A stretch of DNA of 64,000 nucleotides from Candidatus Omnitrophota bacterium. GTDB lineage: Bacteria; Omnitrophota; Gorgyraeia; Zapsychrales; Fredricksoniimonadaceae. The notes beneath the pieces were generated by a model. It was given only the letters and a program-made list of their open reading frames with translations. It did not search any database and was not told where the DNA came from. Below, in pieces: positions 3,281 to 48,810 of this stretch. Made by a program: the position numbers and the translations under genes. Every line of letters starts with the position of its first letter. The stretch's first letter is position 1. The stretch is from assembly GCA_037131245.1 (NCBI GenBank), contig JBAXRK010000008.1, positions 20,474 through 84,473 on the forward strand, written 5' to 3'.

Positions 3281-3292
3281 GGCCGCGCCCGT

Positions 3293-3871
3293 TTACTTCT
3301 CCCCGGGAACTTGAGGCGCGTCAGGATCAACCACCACCGGGATCGGCGCCAGTGCTTTGGACGCGTCCTTGGCCGCGTTCGCCGTCGCCGCGTCTTCCGA
3401 TTGCTGCTTGGCCGTCTGAACCAGCGCCGCCAGCAGGATCGCCGAGCGCTTCACGCCATCCTGGTCTCCCTTGGCATTAAAGATCTCAACACTGCGCCGG
3501 GCCGCCACGATCGCCGGCAGGGCCTGATCGCCACCGTCATAAGCCACCGCCAGCAGGTAGTAAGCCAACCCGTTCTCGGGGAACTGACGTACCGCCGTCG
3601 ACAGGACAGAAACGGCCTGCGGATACTGCTTCAGGTGAACGAAAGTCTCGCTCAGCATGAAATACCCTTCAAAATCATCCGGCGCCACCTTGATCGCCCC
3701 GGCAAAACTGCCAACCGCGTTCTTGATATCGCCCTGCTTAAGGTAGACCGTTCCCTCGACCACCAGCTTGCGGGCCGCTGACAAACCTTTAGAGACCGCC
3801 GCTGTTTCCTTCTTCGCGCAACCCGCCAGCAATAGCCCGGCGATCAAGATCAATGCCATCGACTTTTTCAT
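3293..3871 (-). CDS. TPR-repeat lipoprotein
   Basis: Signal peptide with lipobox (LLLAGC). TPR-like repeats follow (GDIKNAVGSFAGAIKVAPDDFEGYFMLSETFVHLKQYPQAVSVLSTAVRQFPENGLAYYLLAVAY). ATGA overlap with the gltD stop at 3868-3871. Confidence 0.7.
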   Translation of the reverse strand: MKKSMALILIAGLLLAGCAKKETAAVSKGLSAARKLVVEGTVYLKQGDIKNAVGSFAGAIKVAPDDFEGYFMLSETFVHLKQYPQAVSVLSTAVRQFPENGLAYYLLAVAYDGGDQALPAIVAARRSVEIFNAKGDQDGVKRSAILLAALVQTAKQQSEDAATANAAKDASKALAPIPVVVDPDAPQVPGEK

Positions 3872-21477: not shown

Positions 21478-24400
21478 TCAGCCCGTTGCTCCTGCCATCG
21501 CGGGCGCCTGAACCCTTGGCCCCAGGAACGCCGGCACATCCGTGACTGGCGTGATGCTGCGGATGATCGGCACCAGGCCGTTAAAATCCCCGCGCTGGAG
21601 CATGGCCGGGTCAATATTGAACTTGATGCCCGGGCCGTTGGAATCGATGTTCAGATCGGCATTGCTCATGTCGAAGTCGATACCACCCTGCTGTAGGCGA
21701 TTACTAACAGGACTAGCCACTTGATTAACCACTTGTTCACTATTATCAATATGACCTGCTTTCATCGTTCCCTGCTCATCAAAAGTAATCGCTACATCCT
21801 CCAATACGATCCTTCCCGTAGCAGGCAACCCTAGTTCTTTTCTTGATTCAGGACTATTAAGATCCTGAGGCTTACCGGAAAGATTATTGATCCGGATGCT
21901 GCCAATTAAAACAGCGTCCTTCAAGATAACAGCATCCGATGCGTCGCCTTTCTTTAAAACAATCTGCAAAGCCTTAAGATCTTTAGCACTGCCATTCTTA
22001 CCCAATGCCACATCTTCTAACGTCGTCAAATTCTTATAGTATGGCGCATCATCAAATTCATCTTTTTTAGGAATCACAAACTCTAATAACGGTGGATGGA
22101 ACTTGGCACCATAAACATGCTTTAAGGTCCAATCATTCAGATCAAGGTCAAACGCATCTGTCATAAACTGAAACCAATAATCTCCTGCCGACTTGCCTGG
22201 AGTAAAGAACTCCATCCTGTCCTCAACCCCGATATTGACGATCTTAACCAATCGACCCGACTTTGTGTGTTTCTTTAAAATTTCTTTTGCTGCCGGTGTA
22301 TTTTCGAAATAATTCTGTAAATTCAGTAAGGCGGTTCCAAACGGCCCTTCCAACTGAAAGAAATCTTTACTTCCTTGCGGTTTCTTGGAATCGATCAAGT
22401 CCGGAGCAAAGATCTTGTACATATTCTCCCGTTTCTCCTCAAGCGTGGCCCCTTGGATAACATTCTGAAAAACGTCTCTTAGGATCTCCTCCAGCTTGGA
22501 CTTATATAACGCCGCAATATTCGTATTAAAACTTTGCGTACCTTCACCGCCAATCCCGCCCTTTCGGCCAGCATTCACAAAGGCTGAACGCTGATCGTTG
22601 ATCTTAGCTGAGGCCAACTCCAACATCTTGACATTGATCTTTCCCTCTGGCGTTATCTCAATGCCAAACTTACCGCCCTTGGTGTCAATATCCGTAGCTG
22701 TTGTTGAAAGCATGACAATAGGTATTTCTTCTTCAACCATCCATTGCATAATAGTGTCATTAACTAAGCTATTAACAGCATCTCCATTTTGAAACGTTAC
22801 AAACTCATTGCCTTCTGATTTTTTTGAAGAGTCAATCATCTCTCCCAAAAACGTTGTCGCCCATTCACCATGACTAACAGAGCTCAATCGCTCATAAGTT
22901 GGCTTTAATGTATCCACAGTCAATGAAGGATAGAACTGTGCCATCCTCATGTTAATATCAATGCCTTCATCCGCAAATATTTCACGGTACGTTCTTACCC
23001 GTGGGCGGTCATCTATAATATCCTGAAGGCATTCCTTTTCCAAAAATGCCTCATAAAACGGCTTCGATTCAACGTTCACCAAAGGTTCAAAAACAATACG
23101 ACCACCCCCCAAAAAACCCATCTTCTTACGATATAAAAGATTCAATGCCTTGATCTCGGCAATCGTCAAAAACCGGTCTTTACCTTTGATCTTCAACTTC
23201 ATTACTTTTTCTATCTCACCTGACGACACAAGCATACCTATGTCTGTGCCTTTAGCCCCAATGCTTAATACAATATTCCTGATCTTCTTGAATTGTTCAG
23301 CGGTATACTTCTTACCCGAAGAAGGCCGTTCAACAAACCATTTATCAGAAATTTTATCCTGAAGAGATTTGCCATCAACCGAAAAGCTAAATTCTGGCCT
23401 AACAAAACCATTCTCATCCAAATACCCATTCGAGTACAAAACCTCCCTTATGTCCTTATAGTCAAACCCCTCGCTTTCAAACCAGGGCTTTTTGATCTCC
23501 AAACTATGATTCCTAAGAACATACGTCTGACGCTCGATTGCTGAACCTAAGCCGGCGTCACCAGATGCGACAATGGCCGTATATTGATGTTTCCTGGTAT
23601 AATTGCTAACAATTCTTTTGATGTCCGAATATTCATTTCGCCCCAAAAGAGCTTCTTTCTCGGCAGGCTTCAATAACGCATCCAAAATATAATTGCTTTC
23701 TCCATCCTGTCTAGCTGAAGCAACCAGAGTTTTAATTAACTCGTCATCGCCAATTTGCTCTTTATTTTGTGCTCTTCGAAGAGCAGCTTCCAAAAATTTA
23801 TCTTTGCCATTCCGATTCAAAGAAATTTTTAGCCTCCGAACTTTCTCCCAATTGGCTTTATCTTTAATCTTGTCAAGAAAAGCTCTAAAATGACCCATCC
23901 AGGCAACCACGCCCCAACCACTAACCGGTCCATATTTACCTAGAATTCCATCCTCTCCTTTACCAGACTTTAAAGCTTCTTCCGCAAAGGTTATGGCTTT
24001 GGCTACCTGTTCCGGCGTTTCAAACAGTTGCGAAGCATTAGCCGCCGCCTGCGCGGCGCTGACATTGCCAAGGTCGACGCGCGCGCCAACAAGGCGATCC
24101 TGAGACACCACCGGAACCGCACTCGCCGGCATGCGCTCGGCATTGTTCACATCCTTCGCTGAATCCCCTAGCACACCACCCGAGAAATACTTCCGCGGGA
24201 TGACCTCATTGCTCTGCGCGTCGAGGTCTTCCTTAATATAGTTGTAAACGCCCTTCTTGAAGGCCTCCACATAACGCTGATAGACCTGCTCTTTTTCGGT
24301 CTTATCCGCCAGCGCGTTCCCGGCCACCTTGTTCTTGTCGGCGAACGACGCATTAAGAATGCTGTCCTTGACCTTCACCTTATACCAGGCGGCCAGAAGC

Positions 24401-25218
24401 AGCGAATCGAACACCTGACGCAGCTGGGCAAAATTCTTGCCTTCATTGACCTCTTTGGTGATCGCCGGGAGCACCACCTCGCGCAGCACGCGGGAGGAAA
24501 TATCATTAAGCGTTTTAGACGCTTCATCCGTGATCTCGGGCGCGTCCGACTTATTATTAGCCACCGCCAGGTAATCCTGCTCGGTCAGCACTTTGAGCGT
24601 ATGCTTGACGATATAAACGCCGTTACCGGTCTCGTACAGCGCGATCTTATCCGGCATGATCCATACTTTATTGAACGACTCCATCGGCACATCCGACGTG
24701 CCCAGCTTGGCCTGCGCCTCGGCATACACCTTGGCCCAGAATTCCTTCCCCAGATCTGTCTCGGGATACACCATGGTCGCGGTGAGCTGCTTGAGCACAT
24801 AATCCTGTGCCAGCATGTCGCGGCCCATTTCGGTGCTGCCCAGGGCATCCGGAATAATGCGGTTCTTTTCATAGGGCGAAAGGTTCACCCAGGTCTCTTT
24901 TTCGGGAACGGTCAGCGCGGTAAGAAAATACTTAATGAGGCGATCGCTTTCATCGGAAAGCGCCTGGCCTTCCAAGCCGCTCTCACCTTTATCGACTATA
25001 AAATCGAACGCGAAAGGGTTCGCCAGGTCCACCTTGACGCCTTTAAGGGCGGCCGGGGTGAACGGCGCGCTTGCCTGAACCATGGTGCCGGGCACGGGCA
25101 AAGCGGCCAGCGCCTGCGCGAGCGCGGGCGTGGGCATCACGGAATTGACGAAGAAAAGCATCGCCAACGCTGCCGTGAACTGCCTTACAATGAACGATTT
25201 TTTGTCGAAATGAAGCAT
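21478..25218 (-). CDS. large secreted protein P1: shared N-module, UDP-sugar pyrophosphorylase (UDPGP)-like cargo, shared C-terminal GGID tail
   Basis: Signal peptide (..FFVNSVMPTPALAQA). The N-module, about 25140-24170, aligns with P2 and P3. The cargo shows a UDPGP-like motif order (IVASGDAGLGS; LSIGAKGTD; SHGEW; FQNGDAVNSLVND; DTKGGKFG; SFNTNIAAL; FFQLEGPFG). The tail is QQGGIDFD.. at 21694-21478. The start at 25218 has a GGGGA Shine-Dalgarno; the ORF track allows 25251. Confidence 0.6.
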   Translation of the reverse strand: MLHFDKKSFIVRQFTAALAMLFFVNSVMPTPALAQALAALPVPGTMVQASAPFTPAALKGVKVDLANPFAFDFIVDKGESGLEGQALSDESDRLIKYFLTALTVPEKETWVNLSPYEKNRIIPDALGSTEMGRDMLAQDYVLKQLTATMVYPETDLGKEFWAKVYAEAQAKLGTSDVPMESFNKVWIMPDKIALYETGNGVYIVKHTLKVLTEQDYLAVANNKSDAPEITDEASKTLNDISSRVLREVVLPAITKEVNEGKNFAQLRQVFDSLLLAAWYKVKVKDSILNASFADKNKVAGNALADKTEKEQVYQRYVEAFKKGVYNYIKEDLDAQSNEVIPRKYFSGGVLGDSAKDVNNAERMPASAVPVVSQDRLVGARVDLGNVSAAQAAANASQLFETPEQVAKAITFAEEALKSGKGEDGILGKYGPVSGWGVVAWMGHFRAFLDKIKDKANWEKVRRLKISLNRNGKDKFLEAALRRAQNKEQIGDDELIKTLVASARQDGESNYILDALLKPAEKEALLGRNEYSDIKRIVSNYTRKHQYTAIVASGDAGLGSAIERQTYVLRNHSLEIKKPWFESEGFDYKDIREVLYSNGYLDENGFVRPEFSFSVDGKSLQDKISDKWFVERPSSGKKYTAEQFKKIRNIVLSIGAKGTDIGMLVSSGEIEKVMKLKIKGKDRFLTIAEIKALNLLYRKKMGFLGGGRIVFEPLVNVESKPFYEAFLEKECLQDIIDDRPRVRTYREIFADEGIDINMRMAQFYPSLTVDTLKPTYERLSSVSHGEWATTFLGEMIDSSKKSEGNEFVTFQNGDAVNSLVNDTIMQWMVEEEIPIVMLSTTATDIDTKGGKFGIEITPEGKINVKMLELASAKINDQRSAFVNAGRKGGIGGEGTQSFNTNIAALYKSKLEEILRDVFQNVIQGATLEEKRENMYKIFAPDLIDSKKPQGSKDFFQLEGPFGTALLNLQNYFENTPAAKEILKKHTKSGRLVKIVNIGVEDRMEFFTPGKSAGDYWFQFMTDAFDLDLNDWTLKHVYGAKFHPPLLEFVIPKKDEFDDAPYYKNLTTLEDVALGKNGSAKDLKALQIVLKKGDASDAVILKDAVLIGSIRINNLSGKPQDLNSPESRKELGLPATGRIVLEDVAITFDEQGTMKAGHIDNSEQVVNQVASPVSNRLQQGGIDFDMSNADLNIDSNGPGIKFNIDPAMLQRGDFNGLVPIIRSITPVTDVPAFLGPRVQAPAMAGATG

Positions 25219-25341
25219 AAACATCCCCTTTTTGAATGTTATAAATATCACCCAGTCATCAAATATCGTTGTCCGACCTCCACCATGACTACAGACACGA
25301 ACCCCTTGCTATACAAAGGATAAACTATATAAAGGCACTTT

Positions 25342-36675: not shown

Positions 36676-37998
36676 TTAAATATTAAAGAAAATGACGCGT
36701 CGCTCGTCGGAAGAAGCGTACAGTTTGACCGCTTCGGCCAGGGGAAGGGCCTTGATAATAATGGTCTTTTTTTTCAAGAATTTCAACGCTTTGGCGGCCA
36801 GGGAGGTCTTTTTGCCTTTACCGCAGGCAATAATAAATAACTCAGGCCCTTTACGGCAAATAATCTCCAAGTCGCTCTCGGTCAAATAAGAAGGCGTAAG
36901 GTCCCCTGGTTCCTTAACCTTCCCGTCCGCGCGGATAAAGAACGAGGATTGCATCAGTTTGCCTTTAACGCTCACCTTCTTTGAAGGGGTCAGCCGAAGC
37001 AAGGGATAATAGGGCGCGTCTTTAAGGTCTTTGGGATCGCATTCCTGGCGCACCGCGGCCACGCCGCCTAGCATCGCGGCGTCATCGCCCAATTTAGCCT
37101 GCAGCACTTTAGGCGTATTTAATTTCGAAAAGAAAGGATCGCTCTTCAGCGCCTTGGCAATGACCGGCAGAATATGATCGCCGCAGGACTCCACCACCCC
37201 GCCGCCAAGAATGAAGGCCTCGGGATTAAAAATATGATTAAGCGATACACAGGCACTGCCAAGGGCATCCGCGGCTTTTTTCATCACGCGCGTCACCAGC
37301 GGGTCTTTCGCCAGCAGGGCTTTCTTCAAAGCGCCGCTCTTGATCTGCTTAAGCTCCTTACCGGCAATATCCGTGATCAGCGACTTCTCGCCTTTTTTAA
37401 CCGCCGCGCGGATATCCCGTTCGATCGCCCAGCGCCCGGCCACTGCCTCAAGGCACCCTTTATTGCCACAGGTGCACGATGGACCATTGGGATCAACGCT
37501 CACATGCCCCAGCTCAGCCGCCGCGCCCTGAGCGCCATCCATCATACGGCCACCCACAATAACCCCGCCGCCCACGCCCGTTCCCGGAAATATGCCCACG
37601 ACATCATCGGCCTTATGCGCCGCACCCAGCCAGCGTTCGCCCATCACGCCGAAATTCACGTCATTGCCCACCGCCACGCGCGTGCCGTATTTGCCAACCA
37701 GGATCTTTTTAAGGTCCACGCCCCCTAACTCGATATTCGGCGTCACAACCACTTTGCCGCTGGCGTTAACGACGCCAGGCACGGCCACCCCGATACCCAG
37801 GACATTTTTCAGCTCGACTCCTTCCTCTTTGAGAAGGTCTTTGACCACTTGATGAACGGCCGAAAGGATAGCGCGGGCATTGGCTTTGGCCGGCGTGGAA
37901 AGCTTAATCGTGCGCGCGATCTCGCCCGAAGGGCTGACCAACCCGCCGTAGATCTTGGTGCCGCCAATATCGATGCCTATGAAGTACTTTTTTAACAT
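36676..37998 (-). CDS. ROK-family sugar kinase (glucokinase-like) fused to a C-terminal Mth938/DUF498-like domain
   Basis: N-terminal IGIDIGGTKI and the ROK zinc motif CTCGNKGCLEAVAG. The last 115 aa or so (..PELFIIACGKGKKTSLAAKALKFLKKKTIIIKALPLAEAVKLYASSDERRVIFFNI) follow the Mth938-domain pattern. Confidence 0.7.
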   Translation of the reverse strand: MLKKYFIGIDIGGTKIYGGLVSPSGEIARTIKLSTPAKANARAILSAVHQVVKDLLKEEGVELKNVLGIGVAVPGVVNASGKVVVTPNIELGGVDLKKILVGKYGTRVAVGNDVNFGVMGERWLGAAHKADDVVGIFPGTGVGGGVIVGGRMMDGAQGAAAELGHVSVDPNGPSCTCGNKGCLEAVAGRWAIERDIRAAVKKGEKSLITDIAGKELKQIKSGALKKALLAKDPLVTRVMKKAADALGSACVSLNHIFNPEAFILGGGVVESCGDHILPVIAKALKSDPFFSKLNTPKVLQAKLGDDAAMLGGVAAVRQECDPKDLKDAPYYPLLRLTPSKKVSVKGKLMQSSFFIRADGKVKEPGDLTPSYLTESDLEIICRKGPELFIIACGKGKKTSLAAKALKFLKKKTIIIKALPLAEAVKLYASSDERRVIFFNI

Positions 37999-38042: not shown

Positions 38043-38876
38043 TCAGGTACTGATAAAAAATTCATCGATCAGGTCCCCATCAATATCATAAACCCGCACC
38101 CGGCAGGCATTCTTTTCCATCGACAAAAGACAGAAATGAAAAGCCCGTTTGAATTTCACCAGCGCCGGATCTTCACGGTATTGATGGTCCAAATGTGACC
38201 CGCCGCCGCCGGTAACGATCTGCGTAAAGCCCCCGGACGCGAAACGCTGATAACTGTGGTCATGGCCGGAAAAAGCCAGCTTGAGCCCGAACTTGTTAAA
38301 AAGCGGCAGCAAATAAGGCCGCTGCCCTTTTTCATCGGCCTGATGGCGCCCGACATCGAACAGAGGATGATGAAAGATCGCGACCGGGAACAATCCCTGA
38401 CGGCGGGCCTCTTTCAGGTCGTCTTCCAACCAACGATATTGTAGCGACCCCGGCTTCAGAGCGACATTACTGTCCAGGACGATAAAATGAATACCTTCCC
38501 GGTTGACCGAATACCAGTGCCGGCCTTTAACGACCGGAAAATTCTTGAAATATAAATGTGACGAACGCTCATGGTTCCCTAACGCCGGATAATATTCCGT
38601 CGAAGACAAAAGCGGGGCATTGATAGCGTTGAAATCTTTCCAGAGCTCCGGGTCAAGGCCGTTATCCACCAGGTCGCCCACCCGGAAAACCGCGGCTGGC
38701 TTCGCGGCCGCCACCGCCGCGACAACCTTGCGCTGTGCGGCCGGATCATGCTGGCTGTCCCCGAAGATCGCCACCGGCGCGGCCAGCGCGACCGCCTGGG
38801 TAAGGACGCCAAGGAACAAGGACAGGACGATCCGCGTCCAGGACCGGCCAATGAAGCGCATCGTCAATCCCTTCAT
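38043..38876 (-). CDS. secreted calcineurin-like metallophosphoesterase
   Basis: Signal peptide; motifs GDSQHD, GDLVDNG, GNHE, GHDH. ATGA overlap with the upstream gene. Confidence 0.75.
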   Translation of the reverse strand: MKGLTMRFIGRSWTRIVLSLFLGVLTQAVALAAPVAIFGDSQHDPAAQRKVVAAVAAAKPAAVFRVGDLVDNGLDPELWKDFNAINAPLLSSTEYYPALGNHERSSHLYFKNFPVVKGRHWYSVNREGIHFIVLDSNVALKPGSLQYRWLEDDLKEARRQGLFPVAIFHHPLFDVGRHQADEKGQRPYLLPLFNKFGLKLAFSGHDHSYQRFASGGFTQIVTGGGGSHLDHQYREDPALVKFKRAFHFCLLSMEKNACRVRVYDIDGDLIDEFFIST

Positions 38877-40219
38877 GTTGCTACCTTAAAAGCGACCGTC
38901 AGTCCGAAGATCCGCTCCAGCAGGTCAGCTTTGACCCGGGCTACCGCGATCTCCTCGGAAATATCCCTGCCGCGCCGGGGCGTGACGGTAAAAGTGAGCC
39001 TTTTCTCGCCCAGCGAAACTTTTACCTGGGTTACCAGGGAACGATGCGTGCGGTCCAGTCCGTCGGCAATACGCAAGCAAGCGGTTAGGGCGCCCACCGT
39101 CTCCTGCTCGTAAGACGTCAACTGGTCATAATAGCGATGCTCAACATCCGGCAGGCTGCCGCGATGATAACGGGCAATAAGCGCCACCAGCACCCGCTCG
39201 CGGGCATCCAGCGGCAGGGAGCGGTCCTTAAGGATCAGGTCACGGGACGTCTTATGATGGCCTTCCTTGCCGTAGACAAAACCTATATCATGCAGGACCG
39301 CCGCCACGCGCAGATAAACCGACTCGCGCCAACCGAGCTTATGCAACGATTTAAGTTCATCAAAAAGCTGCCCGGCCAGGCGCATCACCTGAAGCGAATG
39401 GGCTTCATGCGGGGTTTTATGGCAAAGCGCCATCGCCGCCTGAAGGCATTGTTCCGTGGCGTCGCTTTTCAAACCGACGATCTCCTCCAGGCTGCGCGCT
39501 TCCTCGAAAGAACGGGTCAACCGGTCCGGAAAACCACGGTCGCGCATCGCGACGGTCAACTCGTCCAGGGAGTACGGAACACGGATATGTTCAACATCCA
39601 TTTTTCCGGAAAGGCCGAAGCTCACAATGGCGTAGGAGGCGCGCAGGTCATTATCGAAAGACCGGCCCACGCCGCCGGGATTGATGAACCTGACGCCACC
39701 GGCCACGCGGTCAAAAAACTCATGGGTATGCCCGCATAAAACAAGCCTGACACCATCTTTCGTCAGCAGGGAGGCGATATCCAGCAACTTGGCCACCGGC
39801 GTGCGCGGGGTCAAACAATCGCTCATGCCCTGCGGGCTGCCGTGGGTCATCAACACCCGGACACCTTCGACCAAGACCGGCTCGGTCCGGGGGATCCGCG
39901 CGATGAACGCCAGGCTCTCAGGTGAAAGGGCCTGATGGGTCCACTCAAATGAAAAAACCTTGTCGGGGTCCTTGCCCGCCGCGCGCATTTTTGCGGCGTG
40001 GGTGCCGTCGGCGCATTTAATATCGTGATTACCCAGGACATGACGCAAACACGCCTGGCGTAACAGGTCGATGCATTCGTTGGGAAAGGGCGCGTAGCCG
40101 ATCATATCGCCGAGGTTCCAGCACTCATCAACCGAGCGGCTGCGCGCGTCGGCGATCACGGCCTTGAGGGCCGGCAAGTTGGCGTGCACATCAGCAAAAA
40201 GGGCGATCCGTTTCTTCAT
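38873..40219 (-). CDS. chimeric protein: YfcE-type metallophosphoesterase domain fused to a Ppx/GppA C-terminal HD-like domain
   Basis: The N-terminal half carries DVHAN, GDMIGY, GNHD and GHTH motifs. The C-terminal half (HSLQVMRLAGQLFDEL..LRVAAVLHDIGF..GHHKTSRDLI..LIARYHRG..LRIADGLDRTH) follows the Ppx domain III/IV pattern. I prefer the start at 40219 (MKKRIALFADVH), which makes an ATGA overlap with the CHAD stop. Confidence 0.65.
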   Translation of the reverse strand: MKKRIALFADVHANLPALKAVIADARSRSVDECWNLGDMIGYAPFPNECIDLLRQACLRHVLGNHDIKCADGTHAAKMRAAGKDPDKVFSFEWTHQALSPESLAFIARIPRTEPVLVEGVRVLMTHGSPQGMSDCLTPRTPVAKLLDIASLLTKDGVRLVLCGHTHEFFDRVAGGVRFINPGGVGRSFDNDLRASYAIVSFGLSGKMDVEHIRVPYSLDELTVAMRDRGFPDRLTRSFEEARSLEEIVGLKSDATEQCLQAAMALCHKTPHEAHSLQVMRLAGQLFDELKSLHKLGWRESVYLRVAAVLHDIGFVYGKEGHHKTSRDLILKDRSLPLDARERVLVALIARYHRGSLPDVEHRYYDQLTSYEQETVGALTACLRIADGLDRTHRSLVTQVKVSLGEKRLTFTVTPRRGRDISEEIAVARVKADLLERIFGLTVAFKVAT

Positions 40220-41097
40220 GGGCGGTCGAGGGTAAAATAGCTGAGGCGCGCCCAGGTCTTCTGTTTTTTGAGGCGCGACCAGACAAAAAGGAATTCCTGG
40301 TAAGCGGTCGCGCGGCGGCGGGTGCACTCCTCATGCAGAAAATTAACGGCGCGGCGAAAGTGGACGTCGCGGCTGGACGAATCCTTGAAGATCCTGATCA
40401 GGCCCAGCCACACGTCAAAATTATGCATGTCCCCCAGGGCCCGCTGCACCTTCATGGCGGCAAAAATGAACGGCTTGACCTTGTTACCGTACAAGCACTC
40501 AAAATTCTCCAGGGTGTACCTTAAATTCTTCGCCGCGATGCGCATCTCATGAAGTTCCTTGATACAGGACTCCTTGCGGACATACGGCTCAAGGCTGAAC
40601 ATCTTCTGCAAGCGCTCGAGCACATTGTTCTTGGCCCACTCGTCGAGAACAACACCGGTCTCCTCCAGGGAAGGCTTCAGCCGCCGGAGGGATTTGAATA
40701 CTTGCTCCTGATGCAAACGGGAAAGGTCCTTAAGGATGCGCGGTTGTATCTCGGCACGGTCCTCGCGCAACTCATCAATGAGCTCAAAAAGGCCCTCGCG
40801 ATACTTAAGGCCTGAAGGCCCGGCGGCCAGTTCGGTCAAAAAAGAGATCTTGGTATCAATGTCGCGCGCCTGGCCAAGCGAACGCAGGAGACTCTTGATA
40901 TTCATGAAGGCCGTCTGGTATTCCCGCGTGCCGATGGTCTCCTTGAAATCCGCCAGCGTGCTCTTGAGCCGCCGCAGGTCCACCCGCATCCTATGCAGGT
41001 GCTCAATGTCCTGCCCCGCCCGCACCCCTTTAACCTCGGCTTCAACAGCGGCAATATGCTTTTCCACCAACTTGCTGAATAAGGAATGTTCGTTCAT
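40216..41097 (-). CDS. CHAD domain protein
   Basis: Repeated HRMRVDLRRLKS / HEMRIAAKNLRYTLE conserved-histidine helices. Located in the polyphosphate operon. Confidence 0.8.
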   Translation of the reverse strand: MNEHSLFSKLVEKHIAAVEAEVKGVRAGQDIEHLHRMRVDLRRLKSTLADFKETIGTREYQTAFMNIKSLLRSLGQARDIDTKISFLTELAAGPSGLKYREGLFELIDELREDRAEIQPRILKDLSRLHQEQVFKSLRRLKPSLEETGVVLDEWAKNNVLERLQKMFSLEPYVRKESCIKELHEMRIAAKNLRYTLENFECLYGNKVKPFIFAAMKVQRALGDMHNFDVWLGLIRIFKDSSSRDVHFRRAVNFLHEECTRRRATAYQEFLFVWSRLKKQKTWARLSYFTLDRP

Positions 41098-43133
41098 GAC
41101 GCCTGGCCATAATGTTTAATAAAGAAATCCTGGGCATTGACCTTGTCTTCGGTCGCTTTGCGGAACGAATACGTGCGTTGCGGTAACAGCAGGCGCGCGC
41201 GCTGATTGTCTTTCCAGGTCTGGTCGAGCACGAAACGCAAATGGTCCTTAAGTTCCTGGCGATGGATCTCGAAAAGAAGTTCAATACGCCGGTCGAGGTT
41301 GCGATGCATCCAGTCGGCAGAGGAAAGGAACACCCGGAACTCGGAATTGTTGTTGAACAGAAAAATACGGCTATGTTCCAGGAACCGCCCCACCACGCTT
41401 TTGACCGTGATATTCTCGCTTAAGCCCGGAACGCCGGGCACCAGCACGCAAATGCCGCGCACGATCAAATGGACCTTCACCCCTTCGCGCGAGGCCTCGT
41501 AAAGCTTGTCGATCATGCGGGTGTCTTCGAGTGAATTGACTTTGGCGAACACAAAGCCATTGCCATAGACCCGCTGGAATTCGATCTCCTTGTCGATGAG
41601 CTCAAAGAAATACTCGCGCAGGTCGTTCGGCGAAGAAATGACCCGCTTCCAGCGCGCCGGCTGGGAATAACCGGAGATCACGTTAAATACGTCGGAAATA
41701 TCCCGCGCGAAATCGTCGTTGGCGGTGAAATACCCGATATCAGTATAGACCCGCGCGGTCTTCTCGTTGTAATTGCCGGTCGACAGGTGCACATAACGCC
41801 GCGTGCGATTCTCCTCGCGCCGCACGATGAGCGCGATCTTGGAGTGGATCTTCATCCCCGCGATGCCGTAAATAACGTAACACCCGGCTTCCTCGAGCTG
41901 GCGCGCCCAGCCGATATTACGCTCCTCATCGAAGCGGGCCTTGATCTCTACGAGCACCGTCACTTGCTTTTTATTTTTGGCCGCCACCTTCAGCGCGGCC
42001 ACGATCTCGCTGTCTTCGCTGGCGCGGTAAAGGGTCATCTTGATCGCCAGCACGTCGGGATCGATCGACGCCGCCTTGATCAGGTCGACTGTTGGCTGGA
42101 ACGACTGATACGGCATATGAAGAATGAAATCCTCTTCCTTGATCCTATCAAAAATATTATCGTAGGCGATCTTGGCCGGTACATACGTTGGAAAGAAAAG
42201 CGCCGCCACCCCCGCCTGCCCCACCAGCTGGAACAGGAACGTCAGGTCCATTTCGCCGTCAATACGAGTAACGTCATCCTTAAGGAAACCAGCCGCCTCA
42301 GTGATCGCGTCCAGGAGCGCTTCCGGGCAAGCTTGCTCGAGGGCCAGCTGCACCACCTTCGCGCGCGGGCGCTTCTTGATCTCTTCCTCGATCGACTCCA
42401 GCAGGTTCGGTGAAAATTCCTCGTCCACCGATAATTCGCTGTCACGGATCAAGCGGAAAAGCGAAGCGCCGGTTATGTCGTACCCGCGAAAAAAGCTCTT
42501 AAGATTGTCGCGGATGATCTCGTCGATCAGGATGAATTCCAGCCCGTTCTTCGATGAAGGGAGCTTCAGCACGCGCGGGATGCTCTGGGGGACCGGGATG
42601 ACTGCCAGGCGGGCTTCACCCTTATACAGCAGGTGGACCGCGAACGCCAAGGTTTTGGAAGCCAGCACCGGGAAGGGATGCCCCTGGTCGATGGCCATGG
42701 GCGTGATGATCGGGTACAGGGTCGCATCGAAGAACCGTTTAACGAATTTCTGCTGATCAGCGGTAAGCTCCCCGGCGTGTCGGATGAAAATGTTCTCCGC
42801 CGCCAAACCGGGCTTAAGCCCCGACTCGTAGACCGTATAAAGTTTTGCCACCAGCTTCAGAATCGTTTCGCGGACCTCACGGTACACATCCTGCGGATAA
42901 TACCCGTAAATATCCTCACGGTTATACTGGGCATCGATCAGCCGCTTGAGGCCGGCCACCCGCACCATGATGAACTCGTCAAGATTATTGGCAAAGATCG
43001 CCAGGAAACGGGCCCGCTCGAGCAGCGGATTCTCAACCTCGGCCGCCTCTTCAAGGACACGCTCATTGAACGCCAACCAACTCAGGTCACGATGGATGAA
43101 CCTATCTTTTTCGTTGAACTTTTCGTCGCTCAT
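41094..43133 (-). CDS. ppk: polyphosphate kinase 1
   Basis: 679 aa. N-terminus RFIHRDLSWLAFNERVLEEA. PLD-like tandem C-terminal domains (HSKIALIVRRE..; LEHSRIFLF). Confidence 0.9.
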   Translation of the reverse strand: MSDEKFNEKDRFIHRDLSWLAFNERVLEEAAEVENPLLERARFLAIFANNLDEFIMVRVAGLKRLIDAQYNREDIYGYYPQDVYREVRETILKLVAKLYTVYESGLKPGLAAENIFIRHAGELTADQQKFVKRFFDATLYPIITPMAIDQGHPFPVLASKTLAFAVHLLYKGEARLAVIPVPQSIPRVLKLPSSKNGLEFILIDEIIRDNLKSFFRGYDITGASLFRLIRDSELSVDEEFSPNLLESIEEEIKKRPRAKVVQLALEQACPEALLDAITEAAGFLKDDVTRIDGEMDLTFLFQLVGQAGVAALFFPTYVPAKIAYDNIFDRIKEEDFILHMPYQSFQPTVDLIKAASIDPDVLAIKMTLYRASEDSEIVAALKVAAKNKKQVTVLVEIKARFDEERNIGWARQLEEAGCYVIYGIAGMKIHSKIALIVRREENRTRRYVHLSTGNYNEKTARVYTDIGYFTANDDFARDISDVFNVISGYSQPARWKRVISSPNDLREYFFELIDKEIEFQRVYGNGFVFAKVNSLEDTRMIDKLYEASREGVKVHLIVRGICVLVPGVPGLSENITVKSVVGRFLEHSRIFLFNNNSEFRVFLSSADWMHRNLDRRIELLFEIHRQELKDHLRFVLDQTWKDNQRARLLLPQRTYSFRKATEDKVNAQDFFIKHYGQAS

Positions 43134-43136
43134 AAA

Positions 43137-44669
43137 TCAGTAACTCTCGTTGATCACCAACCGGATCTGGCTCCCGGTGATGCGTTCAAATAGCTCTTTT
43201 TTCTCAAGAAAATCGTTCTTCTCCAGAAGAAAGTTATCCTTGGAATCAACCTCCAGCGTTATGTCATCGCTGGTACCGTTAATGACCTTAAGCTCCTGCA
43301 CTTTCTGCCGATGCGCGTGGTCCAGCGAATTGGCGATGCGCAGCAGCGCCGACAGCTTCTGCACCGCGATCTGACGGTCATCAGAAAGGCTGTTATAAAC
43401 CAGATGCGATTTCTGCGGGTCGCCGCGGCGATGATAGCGCGCCACGCAGGCGATGGTCTTGATCTCCTCATCGGTCAGGCGGAACAGGTTGAGCGAGCTG
43501 ATGATATATTCCGAATGCTTGTGATGCGCGCGATTGGAAATGAATTTCCCGATATCATGCAGGTAAGCCGCCAGGCTTAAGTACAGCAGGTCGCGCTCCT
43601 CGAGCCCGAGTTGCGGCGCCAGACCGTCAAAAAGAACTTGCGCCAGGTGCGCCACATGCTTGGCATGATCGATGTTGACGTTATACTGTTCGCAGATCGA
43701 ATGCGCTACCGACAGGAGCTGATTGGTCTTGTTGTAGCGTTTCGACAATTCAAGGCCCAGGATCTTGTTGGCCAGCACCGCCTCCGCCAGCGACGTCTCG
43801 AGAATGTACACCTGCGGGATACCGGTCAGCGTAAAAAACATCTTGAGGATGATCATGTAGGGCAAAAGCGCGTCGGTATTCTCCAGGGGCAGGTCGTATT
43901 CGCTAGCGATCTCCTCGTTGGTCTTGGTCGCCAGGAGCTCGATGACCTTGTCCACCTCACCCACCGAGACCTGATAAAAATTGGCAGACACTTTTTTGCT
44001 CGGCAAAATGGCCTTAAGCAACTCCTGGTTCTCGTCGATCAGGAAAATGTCGTCCACATTAAGCCGCGGCAGGCGCGTTTTTAAATATTGGAACTCGTTC
44101 TCAATGTATTCCTCAACGGCCTCGGCCAGCTCTTCCTTGCTGCCATCGATCTTGCCCGTCAACTGCTTGAACCTCAGGCCACCGAGCGCGAGGCCCGTAT
44201 TCATCAGGGTAAAACCTTTCTTAAGGACCGAGATATCCAGGCTACCGGCGCCCATTTCCGCGATCAGGAGGTTCTTGTTATGGACGGGATAAGTACCCTT
44301 GAGCTTATGGGAAATATACGCGTCGATATAATAAACGATATCGCCCACGTTGAGGACATCGATCTCGAGGCCGGTCTTGCGCCGGATCGTATCAACGAAA
44401 ATATTCCGATTATCCGCCTCGCGCACCGCGGTCGTGCCAATAACGAACAACTGGCTGACATTGTATTCAGCCAGGATCTTTTTATATTTCTCGAGTGTGT
44501 TAATGGTGAGATTGATCAGTTCCTGCGTGATGCTGCCCTTAAGGAACGTGGCCCGCCCGATGGGCACGACGTTCTTCAGGGACTCAATGATCATGATGTC
44601 GCCGCTCGACGGCTCACCGATGAGCAGCTTGATGGAATTCGACCCGATATCGATAACGCCGGAAGCCAT
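43137..44669 (-). CDS. ppx: exopolyphosphatase / Ppx-GppA family phosphatase
   Basis: ASKHA N-terminus (VIDIGSNSIKLLIGE) and a C-terminal HD-like domain (LHDIGKFISNRAHHKHSEYII..ARYHRRG). Confidence 0.85.
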   Translation of the reverse strand: MASGVIDIGSNSIKLLIGEPSSGDIMIIESLKNVVPIGRATFLKGSITQELINLTINTLEKYKKILAEYNVSQLFVIGTTAVREADNRNIFVDTIRRKTGLEIDVLNVGDIVYYIDAYISHKLKGTYPVHNKNLLIAEMGAGSLDISVLKKGFTLMNTGLALGGLRFKQLTGKIDGSKEELAEAVEEYIENEFQYLKTRLPRLNVDDIFLIDENQELLKAILPSKKVSANFYQVSVGEVDKVIELLATKTNEEIASEYDLPLENTDALLPYMIILKMFFTLTGIPQVYILETSLAEAVLANKILGLELSKRYNKTNQLLSVAHSICEQYNVNIDHAKHVAHLAQVLFDGLAPQLGLEERDLLYLSLAAYLHDIGKFISNRAHHKHSEYIISSLNLFRLTDEEIKTIACVARYHRRGDPQKSHLVYNSLSDDRQIAVQKLSALLRIANSLDHAHRQKVQELKVINGTSDDITLEVDSKDNFLLEKNDFLEKKELFERITGSQIRLVINESY

Positions 44670-44680: not shown

Positions 44681-47122
44681 TTAAGCCCGCACCTTGAGCA
44701 TATCACCCAGCACATCAAAATGTTTCACCCAGGCCGCCGCCGCGATATCCGACAAGCCCGTACCCAGCACCTGGGCCCGCTTGACCCGGGCGGTCCCCTG
44801 CGCGATCGCATAGTAACTGTTCTGCGCTTTCCAGAAATCCATATCCAGCTGCAATGTCTGCAGCACCCGGACCAGGTCAATAATGCTTTCCAGCAGCGCC
44901 GCGTCCTCCGGATCCCTCTGAAAACGCAACATGAGTTCATTGACTTTGTTCCCGCCGGCATATTCCAGCTGGTCCTTGTTGCGGCTAAGCGGCCAACGCC
45001 GCACCTCCTGCACCATGCGCCGCAATTTATCCAGCGGCACATCCGCCAGCGCCAGCAAGCGGGTGATATCCCGGTTGAGCACGAACTCCACCACGCCGGA
45101 TAATGTTTTCGGCAGCGGCATATGGTTCTCATTGATCATGCGGATCAGGGAATAATGGTCCTCATAAATGCGCCGGAAAGAGGACTCCACCTCGCGCATC
45201 GTGGATTCAAAAATATGGTCCAGGATAGCCTGCTGTTCCTGTTTGAAAAGATGCCACAATGAATAGTTCTTCGCCCCGAAATAGCGGTTGATCACGTGAA
45301 TGGAGCGCGGAATATCCCCGTCGGAGAAGATCTGGGCCACTTCCTGGCGCATTTTATTGAACTGCGCTTCGTCCCGGTAATAATCCACGCCGGTAATGAA
45401 GTTATGGTCCCCCAGGTGCAGGACCACAAAATGAACATCGAACGCGGTCAGGGTAATGCGGGAGATGATCTCGCAATGGCCGGCCACCAGGCTGAGCTTA
45501 CCGACGACCTGCTTGTCATAGACCTTGCGGATGACCTTAAAGCAGTACATCTCGGCCTGCGGCGGGTAATCCTGGTAAAGCGAGCTCATGGCGTAATGGG
45601 CGCCGACGCGCAGGATATCCACGATCGATGGCTCAACATAGATCTTGTAGATCCGCGCCCCGTTATTGGCTTCCGGCATATTGCTCTTTGCCCGGCCGAG
45701 GATCTCGATAAAGCCAAGCTCCAGGTCCTCATCGGTCACCCGGCGGATCAGCTGAATGACCCGGGCCGCGTACTTGATGATCTGGACCGTCTCAATACCG
45801 GAAATATCGTCGAAGAACCAGCCGCAGCTGGTGAACATCAACAGCGCGTTACGCTGGATCTCCAGGCAGCGAAGGATGCGGTTCTTTTCCTTCGGCTCCA
45901 GGCCGGGGCGCAAATGCTCAGTGAAAAACCGATCAATGTTTGACGGCGAACGGTCCAGGATAACCTCAATGAAAGCGTTACGGACTTTCCAGGGGTCGGC
46001 GGCATACCCTGATAATTCACGCTCAAAAACGCCCGTGGCACGATCGCGCAGCCAGTTAAGGGCCTCCCGCAACGGCGCGCGCCACTGCTGGTGCCAGCCC
46101 GGCTTTCCGCCGGAATTGCAACCGCAATCCGCCTTCCAGCGCTCCACGCCATGCATGCAGCTCCACGAGGTGTTCTCGATGATCTCGGCTTCATATTCCG
46201 GCGGGTTGCGTTCCAGGTATTCACCGTAAACCGTGATACCGGCCAGCTTGTTCTTTTCCACATAATGCAAGGCGTACGCCAAAGCCATATCGCCGAACTT
46301 ATGATGATGCCCGTAAGATTCTCCGTCGGTCGCGATATGCACCATCTGCGGCCGGTTCGTCAGGTCGAGCGCGCCCAGGATGCGGTTGGCCAGCGCCTCC
46401 CCGTTATTAAGCAAGCCTTCAAAAGACACCGCCCGGGAGATCGGGCCATCATAAAAAAAGAGCGCGATCGAGCGGCCTGACGGCAAGCGGCAAAGGTAAG
46501 GCCGGCGCAGGTCAATGGCCTTTGTATCGCCCTCGGACCACTCGCGGTCCTCCGAGATCTTTTTGGCGCGCTTGGCCTGGTGCGGCGCCAGCACCGTGAA
46601 CTTGATGCCCTGCTCGGCCATCAGGTCCAGGCTTTCCAGGTCCACCGCTGTTTCGGCCAGCCACATCCCCTCGGGCATCCGCTTGAAACGGGCCTCGAAA
46701 TCCCTGATGCCCCAAATAATCTGGGTCTTTTTATCGGCGGCGTTCGCCAGCGGCATGATCAGGTGGTTGTACACCTGAGCCATCGCCGACCCGTGCCCGG
46801 AAAAACGCGCGCGGCTCTGGCGATCGGCCTCCAGGACCGAACGATAAGCGTCGGGATCCTTCTTCTCCATCCAGGAAAGCAGGGAAGGCCCCATATTAAA
46901 ACTGATCTTGGAATAGGTATTAACGATCTCGGTGATATAGCCGGCCTGGTCCAGGATACGGGAGGCGCCATTGCGGGCATAGCATTCGGCCGAGATGCGC
47001 TCGTTCCAGTCATGATAAGGAAGGGCGGATTCCTGCAGTTCAACTTCCTCCAGCCACGGGTTTTCACGCGGCGGCTGGTAAAAATGTCCGTGAATGCAGA
47101 TAAATTTATTCATCGCGGTCAA
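44681..47122 (-). CDS. GH57-family alpha-glucan enzyme with a DUF3536-like C-terminal region
   Basis: The N-terminal FICIHGHFYQPPRENPW signature is typical of GH57. 813 aa. The start is TTG at 47122 or ATG at 47113. Confidence 0.75.
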   Translation of the reverse strand: MTAMNKFICIHGHFYQPPRENPWLEEVELQESALPYHDWNERISAECYARNGASRILDQAGYITEIVNTYSKISFNMGPSLLSWMEKKDPDAYRSVLEADRQSRARFSGHGSAMAQVYNHLIMPLANAADKKTQIIWGIRDFEARFKRMPEGMWLAETAVDLESLDLMAEQGIKFTVLAPHQAKRAKKISEDREWSEGDTKAIDLRRPYLCRLPSGRSIALFFYDGPISRAVSFEGLLNNGEALANRILGALDLTNRPQMVHIATDGESYGHHHKFGDMALAYALHYVEKNKLAGITVYGEYLERNPPEYEAEIIENTSWSCMHGVERWKADCGCNSGGKPGWHQQWRAPLREALNWLRDRATGVFERELSGYAADPWKVRNAFIEVILDRSPSNIDRFFTEHLRPGLEPKEKNRILRCLEIQRNALLMFTSCGWFFDDISGIETVQIIKYAARVIQLIRRVTDEDLELGFIEILGRAKSNMPEANNGARIYKIYVEPSIVDILRVGAHYAMSSLYQDYPPQAEMYCFKVIRKVYDKQVVGKLSLVAGHCEIISRITLTAFDVHFVVLHLGDHNFITGVDYYRDEAQFNKMRQEVAQIFSDGDIPRSIHVINRYFGAKNYSLWHLFKQEQQAILDHIFESTMREVESSFRRIYEDHYSLIRMINENHMPLPKTLSGVVEFVLNRDITRLLALADVPLDKLRRMVQEVRRWPLSRNKDQLEYAGGNKVNELMLRFQRDPEDAALLESIIDLVRVLQTLQLDMDFWKAQNSYYAIAQGTARVKRAQVLGTGLSDIAAAAWVKHFDVLGDMLKVRA

Positions 47123-48810
47123 AGGCCCTCAACACTCAAGTCACGCGGGTACTCCACGACATAAGAGAGGGTGACTTCCTTTTTTTCCTTCGGTTGCAAG
47201 GTCAGCGTCCATAAATAAACCCCGCCGCGGTCCTGATATTTCTCTGTTTCGGGCTTAAGGCTCGGCTGCACCGCCACCACTTTGATCTTGTCGTCCTGCG
47301 CGACCGGAACCTGGTCGAACAGCTTAAGCGTCACCGCGCGCGGCTTATAATTCTCCACAGTGATCTTGTAGACATAGGTGATCTTGCGGTTCGGTGAAGG
47401 AATATTCGCGATCAGGGTGTCGTCGCTCTTTTCGGAAACAAGCTCGCGCTTGACCGTCAGCCCTTCGTCTATCCCCAGATAAAGGTCAAAAGCCTCACCC
47501 GGCGCCACGGTTTTTGAGATGTCGGAATTTCCCACATACGTTCCATCAAGGAAAATATTGACCCGCCCGGCCAATAGCTGCGTATCGGGTGCGTTCGTGA
47601 CCCGGGACTTCAGGTAAGCGTAATTTGATAACTTGGGTGTGGTCGTGTATTCAAAAGCCGTTTCCAGCGTCTGCACGGTCAGGGGCACGCGGACCTCGCT
47701 GCCGTCAGACTTGATCGTGACCGGACGGGCCGCTTTGTAAACCAACGACACGCCGGAACTTTCCGCCTGCGCGTACGAAAACTCGGCGTCTTTCTTTTTA
47801 TCAGCCAACGCGGGAGCAGCCATATCCGACATGCTCTCGGCCATCATCGCTTTTTGATTCATCCCGCCGCCCAGGGCACCGAACACCCCGCCAGAGCGCG
47901 CATTACTGTAATGGTGCACAACCAAGGGCCGCAAATACCACGGCGAAAGTTCAGGCATCCGCCCGCCGACCGCCGGTTTGGCTGTGGACAAGGTGAGCGC
48001 AACATCCGTCCAGTCCTCACCCGTCGTCTGACGGACAACCGCGAAAGCGCTCAAGGCCGCTTTGCCTTTCTCAAATTCCACGCGGGCGTCATAGAGAGGA
48101 TACCAACCGACCTGCGGCACGGTATACGACAGTTCGATCGTGAGATCTCCGGCTTTCTCGCACTCAAGGTCGACCGCCAGCAAGCGCTCTTCGCGCCCGC
48201 CCATCGAGGAACGAACCTGAGCCAACTCATTGGCCAATACCTGCCGCTCATTATTCTTGTCGCGTAATTTAATCATCAGCGCCTGGGCGCCGTCTTCATG
48301 GGCCTTAAGGCCGTCATCAAGGAACGCCATGGTAGCTTTAAGTTCCTCCGCCGACGGAACTTTCGTCACCAGGTCTTTGGGCAGCTGATTGCCGTTAAAA
48401 AGGCGCACGGAGTCCAGAAAGGCTTTTTTCTGGTCGAGGACATTGCCCTCGCCTTTCATGGCCGCCAGCGCGTCATCGATAGCCTGGATCTTCGCTTCAA
48501 GTTCGCGAACGCGGTCATCGGAAGCCTCCTTGAGGTATTCCGTTTTAAGGCCCGCGCCCAGGATCTTTACCGAGGCCGACCCCTTGCCGGAAACCGACAG
48601 GGAATTTTCATCGAAAGACGGCACCACGCCGGTAAACCGCACGGTCTGCAGCCCTTCCTTCAGGCTGACCTTGGCCACGCGCGTGACGCGGGCCGATGAC
48701 GGATACACCACCGCCTGGCTGATCGCTGAAACGGTATCAACCTTGTCTGCCGACGCAAAACCCGCGAAAAAGACCACTGCTGCCAGGACTATCAAGCCGC
48801 GTTTTTTCAT
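47119..48810 (-). CDS. secreted DUF4140/DUF4139 (MuiA-like) protein
   Basis: Signal peptide. N-terminal pattern AVVYPSSARVTRVAKVSLKEGLQTVRFTGVVPSFDENSLSVSG, a central coiled coil and a C-terminal beta-rich region. Confidence 0.6.
   Translation of the reverse strand: MKKRGLIVLAAVVFFAGFASADKVDTVSAISQAVVYPSSARVTRVAKVSLKEGLQTVRFTGVVPSFDENSLSVSGKGSASVKILGAGLKTEYLKEASDDRVRELEAKIQAIDDALAAMKGEGNVLDQKKAFLDSVRLFNGNQLPKDLVTKVPSAEELKATMAFLDDGLKAHEDGAQALMIKLRDKNNERQVLANELAQVRSSMGGREERLLAVDLECEKAGDLTIELSYTVPQVGWYPLYDARVEFEKGKAALSAFAVVRQTTGEDWTDVALTLSTAKPAVGGRMPELSPWYLRPLVVHHYSNARSGGVFGALGGGMNQKAMMAESMSDMAAPALADKKKDAEFSYAQAESSGVSLVYKAARPVTIKSDGSEVRVPLTVQTLETAFEYTTTPKLSNYAYLKSRVTNAPDTQLLAGRVNIFLDGTYVGNSDISKTVAPGEAFDLYLGIDEGLTVKRELVSEKSDDTLIANIPSPNRKITYVYKITVENYKPRAVTLKLFDQVPVAQDDKIKVVAVQPSLKPETEKYQDRGGVYLWTLTLQPKEKKEVTLSYVVEYPRDLSVEGL

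Follow-up and report, generated by a model that had tools for sequence, protein, structure and literature searches.

To our knowledge, the breakdown of polyphosphate (polyP) in prokaryotes has been attributed almost entirely to the Ppx/GppA family, with short-chain TTM enzymes as a minor addition. In the Ppx/GppA proteins (E. coli PPX, 1u6z; D. radiodurans PPX, 8jgo; H. pylori, 6pc0) the active site lies on ASKHA domains I-II, and the C-terminal half, domains III and IV, has been credited with processivity (Alvarado 2006, as cited in PMC6537752). The CYTH(TTM)-CHAD proteins such as E. coli YgiF join a small metal-dependent phosphoanhydride hydrolase to a CHAD domain and are often found in polyP clusters (PMC6537752, PMC4641920). 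For CHAD domains, high affinity binding of polyP and targeting to granules have been demonstrated experimentally, and the same authors proposed that they make fused polyP enzymes processive (PMC6537752). In yeast, Ppn2, which like Ppn1 cuts polyP and belongs to the metallophosphatase superfamily, is a Zn-dependent endopolyphosphatase (PMC11352482, Table 1); the endopolyphosphatase PPN1 is stated in this review as not found in bacteria. Here we describe a gene from a 64,000-nucleotide stretch of a Candidatus Omnitrophota contig (JBAXRK010000008.1; the whole stretch is referred to as the window) that lies in a ppk1 operon and encodes a fusion of a metallophosphoesterase (MPE) with the III/IV module of Ppx/GppA. 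The fusion shares this module with the Ppx/GppA enzymes and differs from them in that the MPE stands in place of the ASKHA domains bearing their active site. From its sequence it appears to be a candidate hydrolase of the polyP system, built of a known tail and a different catalytic head, which has been catalogued but is uncharacterised.

The features of the gene are as follows.

38873..40219, minus strand: MPE-HDIII/IV fusion gene, 448 aa plus stop (stop codon 38873-38875), from the open reading frame (ORF) and its translation
39500..40219, minus strand: N-terminal calcineurin-like MPE domain, aa 1-240, from Pfam Metallophos_2, the metal ligands and Foldseek
40178-40198, minus strand: MPE motif I, FADVHAN (aa 8-14)
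40094-40114, minus strand: MPE motif II, LGDMIGY (aa 36-42)
40022-40036, minus strand: MPE motif III, LGNHD (aa 62-66)
39833-39850, minus strand: MPE motif IV, MTHGSP (aa 124-129)
39719-39736, minus strand: MPE motif V, CGHTHE (aa 162-167)
39044..39472, minus strand: helical HD-like domain, the counterpart of Ppx/GppA domain III, aa 250-392, from Pfam, BLASTP and a PDB match
39278-39298, minus strand: HD dyad of domain III, at the start of VLHDIGF...GHHKT (aa 308-324)
39248-39262, minus strand: HHK motif of domain III, at the end of the same segment
39158-39175, minus strand: RYHR motif of domain III, within ARYHRG (aa 349-354)
39044-39079, minus strand: LRIADGLDRTH motif of domain III (aa 382-392)
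38876..39043, minus strand: small alpha/beta domain, the counterpart of Ppx domain IV, aa 393-448, from the AlphaFold2 (AF2) model and the Foldseek match to 3rf0

The start was set at the ATG at 40219 (MKKRIALF...) rather than at that of a longer GTG ORF reaching 40327, because the homologues start with this ATG. In Pfam, Metallophos_2 covers aa 4-200 (7e-22) and Ppx-GppA_III (PF21447) aa 273-411 (6e-15, 55.9 bits against a cut-off of 27.3), and HD (PF01966) matches the protein with 32.4 bits against a cut-off of 22 (1.3e-7). Neither the ASKHA family PF02541 nor TIGR03706 matches the fusion in Pfam and NCBIfam, CHAD (PF05235) has no Pfam match in the protein itself, and no NCBIfam model reaches its cut-off. 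BLASTP aligns aa 234-404 with the Ppx encoded in the same window (43137-44669) at 36% identity over 176 aa (E=6e-19), nothing else aligning, and the PDB Ppx 8jgo matches the C-half with a sequence E-value of 7e-15; judged by these alignments, the similarity to the window's Ppx is far above chance.

The AF2 model, calculated from a 58-sequence alignment of full-length homologues, has a mean pLDDT of 95.6 and a pTM of 0.91, and this indicates that the protein would form a compact two-part fold, not two beads on a string. Searched with Foldseek against the PDB, the N-half of the model retrieves 3rqz from Sphaerobacter (1.8e-16), SapH/Spr1479 (3qfm; 1.6e-14, TM 0.79) and also 1nnw and 2gju, with E-values from 1e-16 to 1e-13. 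The C-half retrieves the C-terminal halves of the Ppx/GppA proteins of E. coli, A. baumannii, K. pneumoniae, D. radiodurans and H. pylori, and superposes on the isolated Y. pestis Ppx C-fragment 3rf0 with a TM of 0.72 across ~200 aa. Because these matches span whole Ppx C-halves, the Ppx-like part comprises both domain III and domain IV, the latter modelled as beta-beta-alpha-alpha-beta with pLDDT >90. The architecture of an MPE head on a Ppx/GppA III/IV tail, with the ASKHA domains absent, is thereby confirmed. The initial annotation, made from the sequence alone, had already seen the likeness to the Ppx/GppA C-terminal domains, which is significant in both profile and pairwise alignment and is borne out by the predicted structure; the Ppx-like part is, however, ~200 aa long (250-448) rather than ~230 aa, and with its alpha/beta domain IV it is not solely helical. 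The same annotation called the N-half a YfcE-type calcineurin-like phosphoesterase. It is an MPE with the motifs quoted, but the YfcE model TIGR00040 scores 35.2 bits, below its cut-off of 56.25, so this name is true at the level of Metallophos_2 only, and the nearest structures are 3rqz and SapH.

SapH (3qfm), 3rqz, 1nnw from P. furiosus and 2gju from P. horikoshii share with the N-half an MPE subtype of ~245 aa with a helical insertion and C-terminal helices, the same metal ligands, 25-30% identity and TM values of 0.77-0.85. Unlike the fusion, all four are single-domain proteins, and we found no polyP link reported for them; the title of the SapH PDB entry gives Ap4A, ATP and phosphodiesters as its substrates.

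Conservation was read from the alignment of the 58 full-length fusion homologues. In the MPE domain the ligands D38, N64, H126, H164 and H166 do not vary, and conservation of D10 and H12 is at least 90%; all five motifs (DVH, GD, GNHD, THG, GHTH) are complete in the protein studied here, whose motif III is GNHD against GNYD in the consensus of the family. The invariant residues of the C-half are H274, H310-D311, H321, H352, D386 and D389, together with R350, R353 and R383, and H322 is at least 90% conserved; on the sequence this is the full H...HD...H...D signature of HD phosphohydrolases. Both halves thus look catalytically competent. Since the MPE ligands are as invariant as those of the HD site, the MPE domain is not degenerate, and since the HD metal-site signature is complete and nearly invariant, a second active site in the C-half is possible. 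The C-half had been proposed to be the substrate-binding module of Ppx; a Ppx III/IV module it is, but with this signature it may do more than bind.

Taken further, the key catalytic centre would be the HD site of domain III, with the MPE as an accessory that either has another activity or is a degenerate binding domain. The protein would be an enzyme with two sites and two functions, or else an HD phosphohydrolase for which the MPE serves as adaptor. We judge this improbable. The residues H274/H310-D311/H321-H322/H352/D386/D389 are indeed nearly invariant both in the fusions and in stand-alone HDIII-IV proteins, which have no other catalytic domain, and a CHAD-HDIII protein (L042) and a solo HDIII protein (L074) lie in polyP clusters without any MPE. 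The signature is also relaxed in several genuine Ppx proteins: at position 386, E, N or T is frequent in those encoded beside fusions (N in the Ppx of the window), HD is replaced by HE in E. coli and D. radiodurans PPX, and in H. pylori most of the motif is gone. However, the MPE ligands vary no more than those of the HD site, polyP clusters also hold forms that lack HDIII (MPE-only and CHAD-MPE), many true Ppx proteins, those of Nitrospira and Tepidisphaerales, keep the full HD signature, identical to that of the fusion, and in the literature searched we found no report of a catalytic role for Ppx domain III. Because of the Nitrospira and Tepidisphaerales proteins, it cannot be taken as a clean rule that the HD site is intact in the fusion only and has degenerated in true Ppx. 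As genuine Ppx proteins keep it, the intact HD site is an old property of the III/IV module and not specific to the fusion, although, as far as the alignments go, it is held more strictly in the fusion and stand-alone lineage than in Ppx.

Homologues of the fusion were collected at two levels. At least 415 clusters at 90% identity match it with E<=0.001, both domains being present in 119 of the 120 best listed, and an exhaustive HMMER scan of 1.84 billion representatives gave 243 representatives at 50% identity with E<=1e-30. All sequences come from metagenome-assembled genomes (MAGs) or metagenomes, and the family occurs in Omnitrophota, Planctomycetota, Chloroflexota, Synergistota, Bathyarchaeia, ANME-1 and methanogens. 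When the best 150 representatives at 50% identity were classed with our own domain HMMs, 76 were MPE-HD3, 38 CHAD-MPE-HD3, 19 MPE only, 6 CHAD-MPE and 4 HD3 only, leaving 7 odd cases that include two more CHAD-MPE forms with a double CHAD match.

For genomic context we surveyed at least 80 loci, with one genome per GTDB species, in which ORFs were called mechanically and searched with the proteins of the window's operon; as the loci were chosen by similarity, the taxonomic breadth they show is a lower bound. All 21 fusion-bearing loci among them have PPK1, CHAD and/or PPX immediately adjacent and co-directional. Their hosts include Phycisphaerales, Pirellulales, Anaerolineae, Chloroflexia, Limnocylindrales (Limnocylindria), Synergistaceae, Bathyarchaeia, Methanolliviera and ANME-1, and the gene order varies: PPX-PPK1-CHAD-fusion (L003), PPK1-CHAD-fusion-PPX (L009), CHAD-fusion-PPX-PPK1 (L001 and L013) or, with the CHAD domain joined in, PPK1-[CHAD-MPE-HD3]-PPX (L011, L012 and L027). 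PPK2 genes are frequent in the loci of the family. By a rough estimate, a 20-kb window placed at random in a genome of a few Mb would contain ppk1 ~0.5% of the time, so the linkage of the fusion to polyP genes is not due to chance. The linkage to CHAD and ppk1, which the annotation had proposed to look at, thus holds across many phyla, with covalent fusion to CHAD in many relatives, and the tie to polyP is stronger for it than the window alone would suggest.

The domains of the family are also found in other combinations.

L011, L014, L015: triple fusion CHAD-MPE-HDIII, from Pfam
L042 (Methanoregula), 1376-3091: CHAD-HDIII fusion, from Pfam
L060 (Smithella, from Pfam) and L069 (Dehalococcoidales, from phmmer only): split or permuted arrangement, an HDIII gene, then an MPE gene, then a CYTH-CHAD gene
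L074, 9833-10519: solo HDIII between CHAD and PPX, from Pfam
L031, 9929-11692: MPE-PPK2 fusion (from Pfam) of a deltaproteobacterial MAG, followed by another PPK2 gene and by CHAD
L018 (Omnitrophota): MPE-ROK-DUF498 fusion, from Pfam

These data bear on two further readings of the protein. The first is a generic housekeeping phosphodiesterase whose position in the operon is incidental. The names found in databases would suit it, being as generic as 'YfcE family phosphodiesterase' or 'metallophosphoesterase family protein' (the NCBI entry 100% identical to the fusion reads 'MAG: metallophosphoesterase family protein [Candidatus Omnitrophota bacterium]'). We consider it exceedingly improbable, an incidental role being effectively refuted by the adjacency to ppk1, CHAD or ppx at all 21 fusion loci, in phyla of both bacteria and archaea, and by the repeated, independent gene fusions to CHAD, PPK2 and ROK. 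In the second, the protein would be a phosphatase or regulator that strips PPK1 phosphohistidine or protein-attached polyP chains and so tunes synthesis against degradation. The MPE superfamily includes many protein phosphatases, and the gene is tightly coupled in translation inside a ppk1 operon. Its MPE domain, however, belongs to the Metallophos_2/SapH/3rqz group and not to the PPP group, the sole match to a protein-phosphatase model is negligible (16 bits against a cut-off of 326), and the fusion to polyP-binding modules points to the polymer itself, leaving such a role very improbable.

The stand-alone HDIII-IV proteins, ~205-230 aa long (L013:8208-8822, L049:9959-10582, L074:9833-10519, L028:1-648), and the CHAD-HDIII protein of L042 have a complete HD signature and lack any other catalytic domain. 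Most lie among polyP genes, L049 being the exception. To judge from their sequences they are a small, uncharacterised protein family of their own. In Brevefilum (L025, 9806-11266) the same MPE subtype is joined to the N-domain of a SAM hydroxide adenosyltransferase, beside CHAD.

Given that CHAD binds polyP, that the Ppx C-half is credited with processivity and that an MPE, Ppn2, cuts polyP, we read the fusion as a hydrolase of polyP. More exactly, it would be a cytoplasmic metal-dependent phosphohydrolase acting on inorganic polyP at the granule, together with the CHAD, PPK1 and canonical Ppx proteins of its operon, a proposal to which we give about an even chance. The polyP chain would be held by the CHAD partner, separate here and covalently fused in many relatives, and by the fusion's own III/IV module, and phosphoanhydride bonds would be cleaved by the MPE domain at its dinuclear metal centre. 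Domain III, with its HD metal site intact, could there provide a second catalytic site or bind the phosphate end. Since a processive, exo-acting Ppx is encoded two genes upstream, and is co-encoded at many other loci, the activity is expected to be non-redundant; it might complement Ppx by endo cleavage, which makes new chain ends, or by cleaning up short chains. If this proposal is right, yeast Ppn2 would be a functional analogue, the two being likened by description and not by sequence; Ppn2 is eukaryotic, vacuolar and Zn-dependent and, unlike the fusion family, has no Ppx-type or CHAD module. The CYTH-CHAD proteins have the same design, a small hydrolase paired with CHAD, and in L060 and L069, where MPE and HDIII are separate genes, their genes adjoin these. 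YgiF differs in having a triphosphate tunnel rather than an MPE sandwich, in being a short-chain tripolyphosphatase and in its lack of HDIII/IV.

Several points weigh against this proposal. In the literature searched we found no biochemical characterisation of any member of the family, and the nearest characterised MPE, SapH (25% identity), acts not on polyP but on Ap4A, ATP and phosphodiesters. The linkage to polyP genes would equally fit a substrate that is made by PPK or Ppx or that regulates them, and as the operon already holds a Ppx, the need for a second polyphosphatase is not obvious. The loci were moreover gathered by sequence patterns, ranked by similarity and parsed with naive ORF calls.

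The main rival is a hydrolase of nucleotide-linked polyphosphates, such as Ap4A, (p)ppGpp or the adenosine and guanosine tetra- and pentaphosphates that PPK1/PPK2 form as side products, which would act as a house-cleaner or regulator of the polyP system. Both halves of the fusion lend it something: SapH, the closest characterised structure to the MPE, is an asymmetric Ap4A hydrolase/phosphodiesterase, and the C-half is a domain of the HD/phosphodiesterase type with its metal site intact. That fold is used by (p)ppGpp and Ap4A hydrolases, and (p)ppGpp controls Ppx. In the MPE-PPK2 fusion an MPE of the same subfamily is joined to a nucleotide-phosphorylating enzyme, and polyphosphate kinases are described in PMC7595981 as able to make oligophosphorylated nucleotides. 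The recurrent covalent partner of the family is, however, CHAD, a module specific for polyP chains (PMC6537752), and the retained Ppx domains III/IV are associated with long-chain binding, not nucleotide binding. The ppGpp structure of H. pylori PPX/GppA, 6pc1, is entered as that of the active-site mutant E143A, and this site presumably lies in the N-terminal ASKHA half, which is absent from the fusion. For these reasons we regard a nucleotide polyphosphate as a possible but unlikely substrate; were it the true one, a conserved quality-control or signalling step would be attached to polyP metabolism.

Considered as a polyP hydrolase, the fusion makes a good candidate for a polyP-cleaving enzyme of a kind new to prokaryotes. 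With 243 representatives, intact sites, a place in ppk1-CHAD-ppx clusters of bacteria and archaea and repeated fusion to CHAD, the family offers a definite candidate, and one that can be cloned, for a second way of mobilising polyP. It is found mainly in lineages that are anaerobic and for the most part uncultured (Omnitrophota, Anaerolineae, Bathyarchaeia, ANME and methanogens). Full-text literature searches yielded no paper that characterises or describes the MPE-HDIII/IV architecture, although the co-occurrence of CHAD and MPE may have been noted in passing about twenty years ago, in a paper that we have not read. We tentatively go one step further, to a suggestion that we ourselves find somewhat doubtful: that the MPE-HDIII/IV family, whose CHAD is either a partner or fused, would be the first MPE-type polyphosphatase of prokaryotes, granule-tethered and cutting polyP internally or taking chains that Ppx cannot, possibly with a second, HD site, and that related MPEs lie behind archaeal Mn/Co-dependent activities now being reported that are not due to Ppx and have no assigned gene. 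One such Mn2+/Co2+-dependent polyP-degrading activity, with no gene assigned, has been described in Haloferax (H. volcanii) in a 2026 study (PMC13318637).

The chromosome of Haloferax sp. YSSS75 encodes an MPE-only homologue (L077, 10001-10681) with 34% identity to aa 4-249 of the fusion. Within 10 kb of it there is no match to PPK1, CHAD or PPX, and its group mostly lacks the basic residues at positions 87 and 144 described next, so its tie to the Haloferax activity is only a lead.

We compared the N-halves of 21 fusions, 10 polyP-linked MPE-only proteins and 37 unlinked MPE-only proteins, and five positions stand out.

Position 87: K in 90% of fusions and 100% of linked MPE-only proteins, mostly S or G in unlinked ones; K in the protein studied here
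Position 144: R in 90% of fusions and 60% of linked MPE-only proteins, mostly F or S in unlinked ones; K here
Position 134: E in fusions, E or D in linked MPE-only proteins, E in 38% of unlinked ones; D here
Position 140: T in fusions and in 50% of linked MPE-only proteins, mostly R in unlinked ones; T here
Position 131: S in fusions and in 60% of linked MPE-only proteins, mostly L or K in unlinked ones; G here

Hence K87 and a basic residue at 144 are common to the fused and the PPK1/CHAD-linked MPEs and mostly wanting in the unlinked MPE-only homologues, and 3rqz has no K87. These extra conserved basic residues would fit a polyanionic substrate, to which they are a weak pointer.

The tail has a history of its own. 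A neighbour-joining (NJ) tree of 58 HDIII-IV modules separates all those of fusion, CHAD-fused and stand-alone proteins from all the Ppx tails, so that the C-module of the fusion stands in a sister group to Ppx in which the HD signature is strict, whereas it is relaxed in some Ppx. The exact split recurs in 60/100 bootstraps, with a mean best Jaccard of 0.95, and on average modules of the fusion/solo group are 40% identical to one another, those of the Ppx group 42%, and modules from different groups 33%. A recent copy of the C-half from the neighbouring Ppx is not supported, given the 36% identity between the two and the grouping of the C-half with solo and CHAD-fused modules, although with 60/100 bootstraps this is tentative. 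Because of this grouping, a separate mobile module is to be preferred to a swap inside Ppx: with moderate support from the tree, the III/IV module more likely is independent and mobile, and joined ASKHA, MPE and CHAD heads rather than arising in the fusion by recent swap. The idea that the MPE 'replaces' the ASKHA half therefore stands in so far as no ASKHA domain is present, but not in the sense of an exchange within a Ppx. A Ppx 'tail' that pairs as a mobile module with different catalytic heads bears on how processivity and granule access are built in polyP enzymes.

In the window the fusion is one of a string of genes on the minus strand.

47119-48810, minus strand: MuiA/DUF4139-DUF4140 protein, heading the overlapping gene string
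44681..47122, minus strand: GH57 + DUF3536 glycoside hydrolase, from Pfam; upstream of ppx in Omnitrophota relatives too (L081, L082, L003)
43137..44669, minus strand: canonical Ppx/GppA-family exopolyphosphatase (ASKHA plus domain III/IV), from Pfam Ppx-GppA (4.6e-20) and Ppx-GppA_III (5.5e-24)
41094..43133, minus strand: polyphosphate kinase 1, with all four PPK1 Pfam domains and TIGR03705 at 813 bits against a cut-off of 466
40216..41097, minus strand: CHAD (polyphosphate-binding) protein, from Pfam CHAD (1e-39)
38043..38876, minus strand: purple-acid-phosphatase-like MPE with a signal-peptide-like N-terminus, from Pfam Metallophos (3e-14) and PDB purple acid phosphatases (2.5e-11)
36676..37998, minus strand: ROK-family sugar kinase with a DUF498-like tail, from Pfam ROK (2e-60)

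From 48810 to 36676 these genes form one tight string, with the fusion between CHAD and the second MPE and gaps of -4, 11, 3, -4, -4, -4 and 44 nt. The ppx-ppk1-CHAD operon and the ATGA coupling of the fusion to the genes on both its sides were recognised from the outset; the neighbours are identified by Pfam, and both overlaps can be read directly in the sequence, as cccATGAag at the CHAD stop and fusion start and aacATGAag at the fusion stop and the start of the next MPE. The order GH57/DUF3536 - Ppx - PPK1 - CHAD - fusion - ROK is repeated in three more Omnitrophota assemblies.

The MPE at 38043-38876, which has the signal-peptide-like N-terminus MKGLTMRFIGRSWTRIVLSLFLGVLTQAVALA/AP and sits between the fusion and the ROK gene, was rejected as a member of the system, as it is absent from that place in three related Omnitrophota operons and present in 2 of 80 loci, non-adjacent there. 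It is an insertion specific to this window. The ROK kinase follows the fusion in every Omnitrophota relative examined (L081-L084), and in L018 it is joined in frame to the MPE domain (2822-4912), the HDIII module being missing there. It falls below the NCBIfam cut-offs for ATP-glucokinase and for polyphosphate-glucose phosphotransferase, and might be a sugar kinase dependent on polyP. Immediately upstream in L081 there is a CBM48/alpha-amylase gene, and the GH57 + DUF3536 gene and the MuiA-type gene share their string with ppx-ppk1. Glycogen-type genes are hence organised together with those for polyphosphate in these Omnitrophota.

Beyond the ROK gene lie three giant tandem paralogues with signal-peptide-like N-termini, and no tRNA genes were found within the window.

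21478-25251, minus strand: giant paralogue, 1257 aa
25342-31608, minus strand: giant paralogue, 2088 aa
31655-36520, minus strand: giant paralogue, 1621 aa

The 1621-aa protein, the sole one of the three that was run, has no Pfam family above threshold and a sub-threshold APH match only. The paralogues share an N-terminal domain of ~350 aa (FDFIVD...WVNLSPYEK...TEMGRD.LAQDY.LKQL) and have a GGIDF motif near the C-terminus. The GC content falls to 0.41 at 22001-24000, compared with ~0.55 elsewhere.

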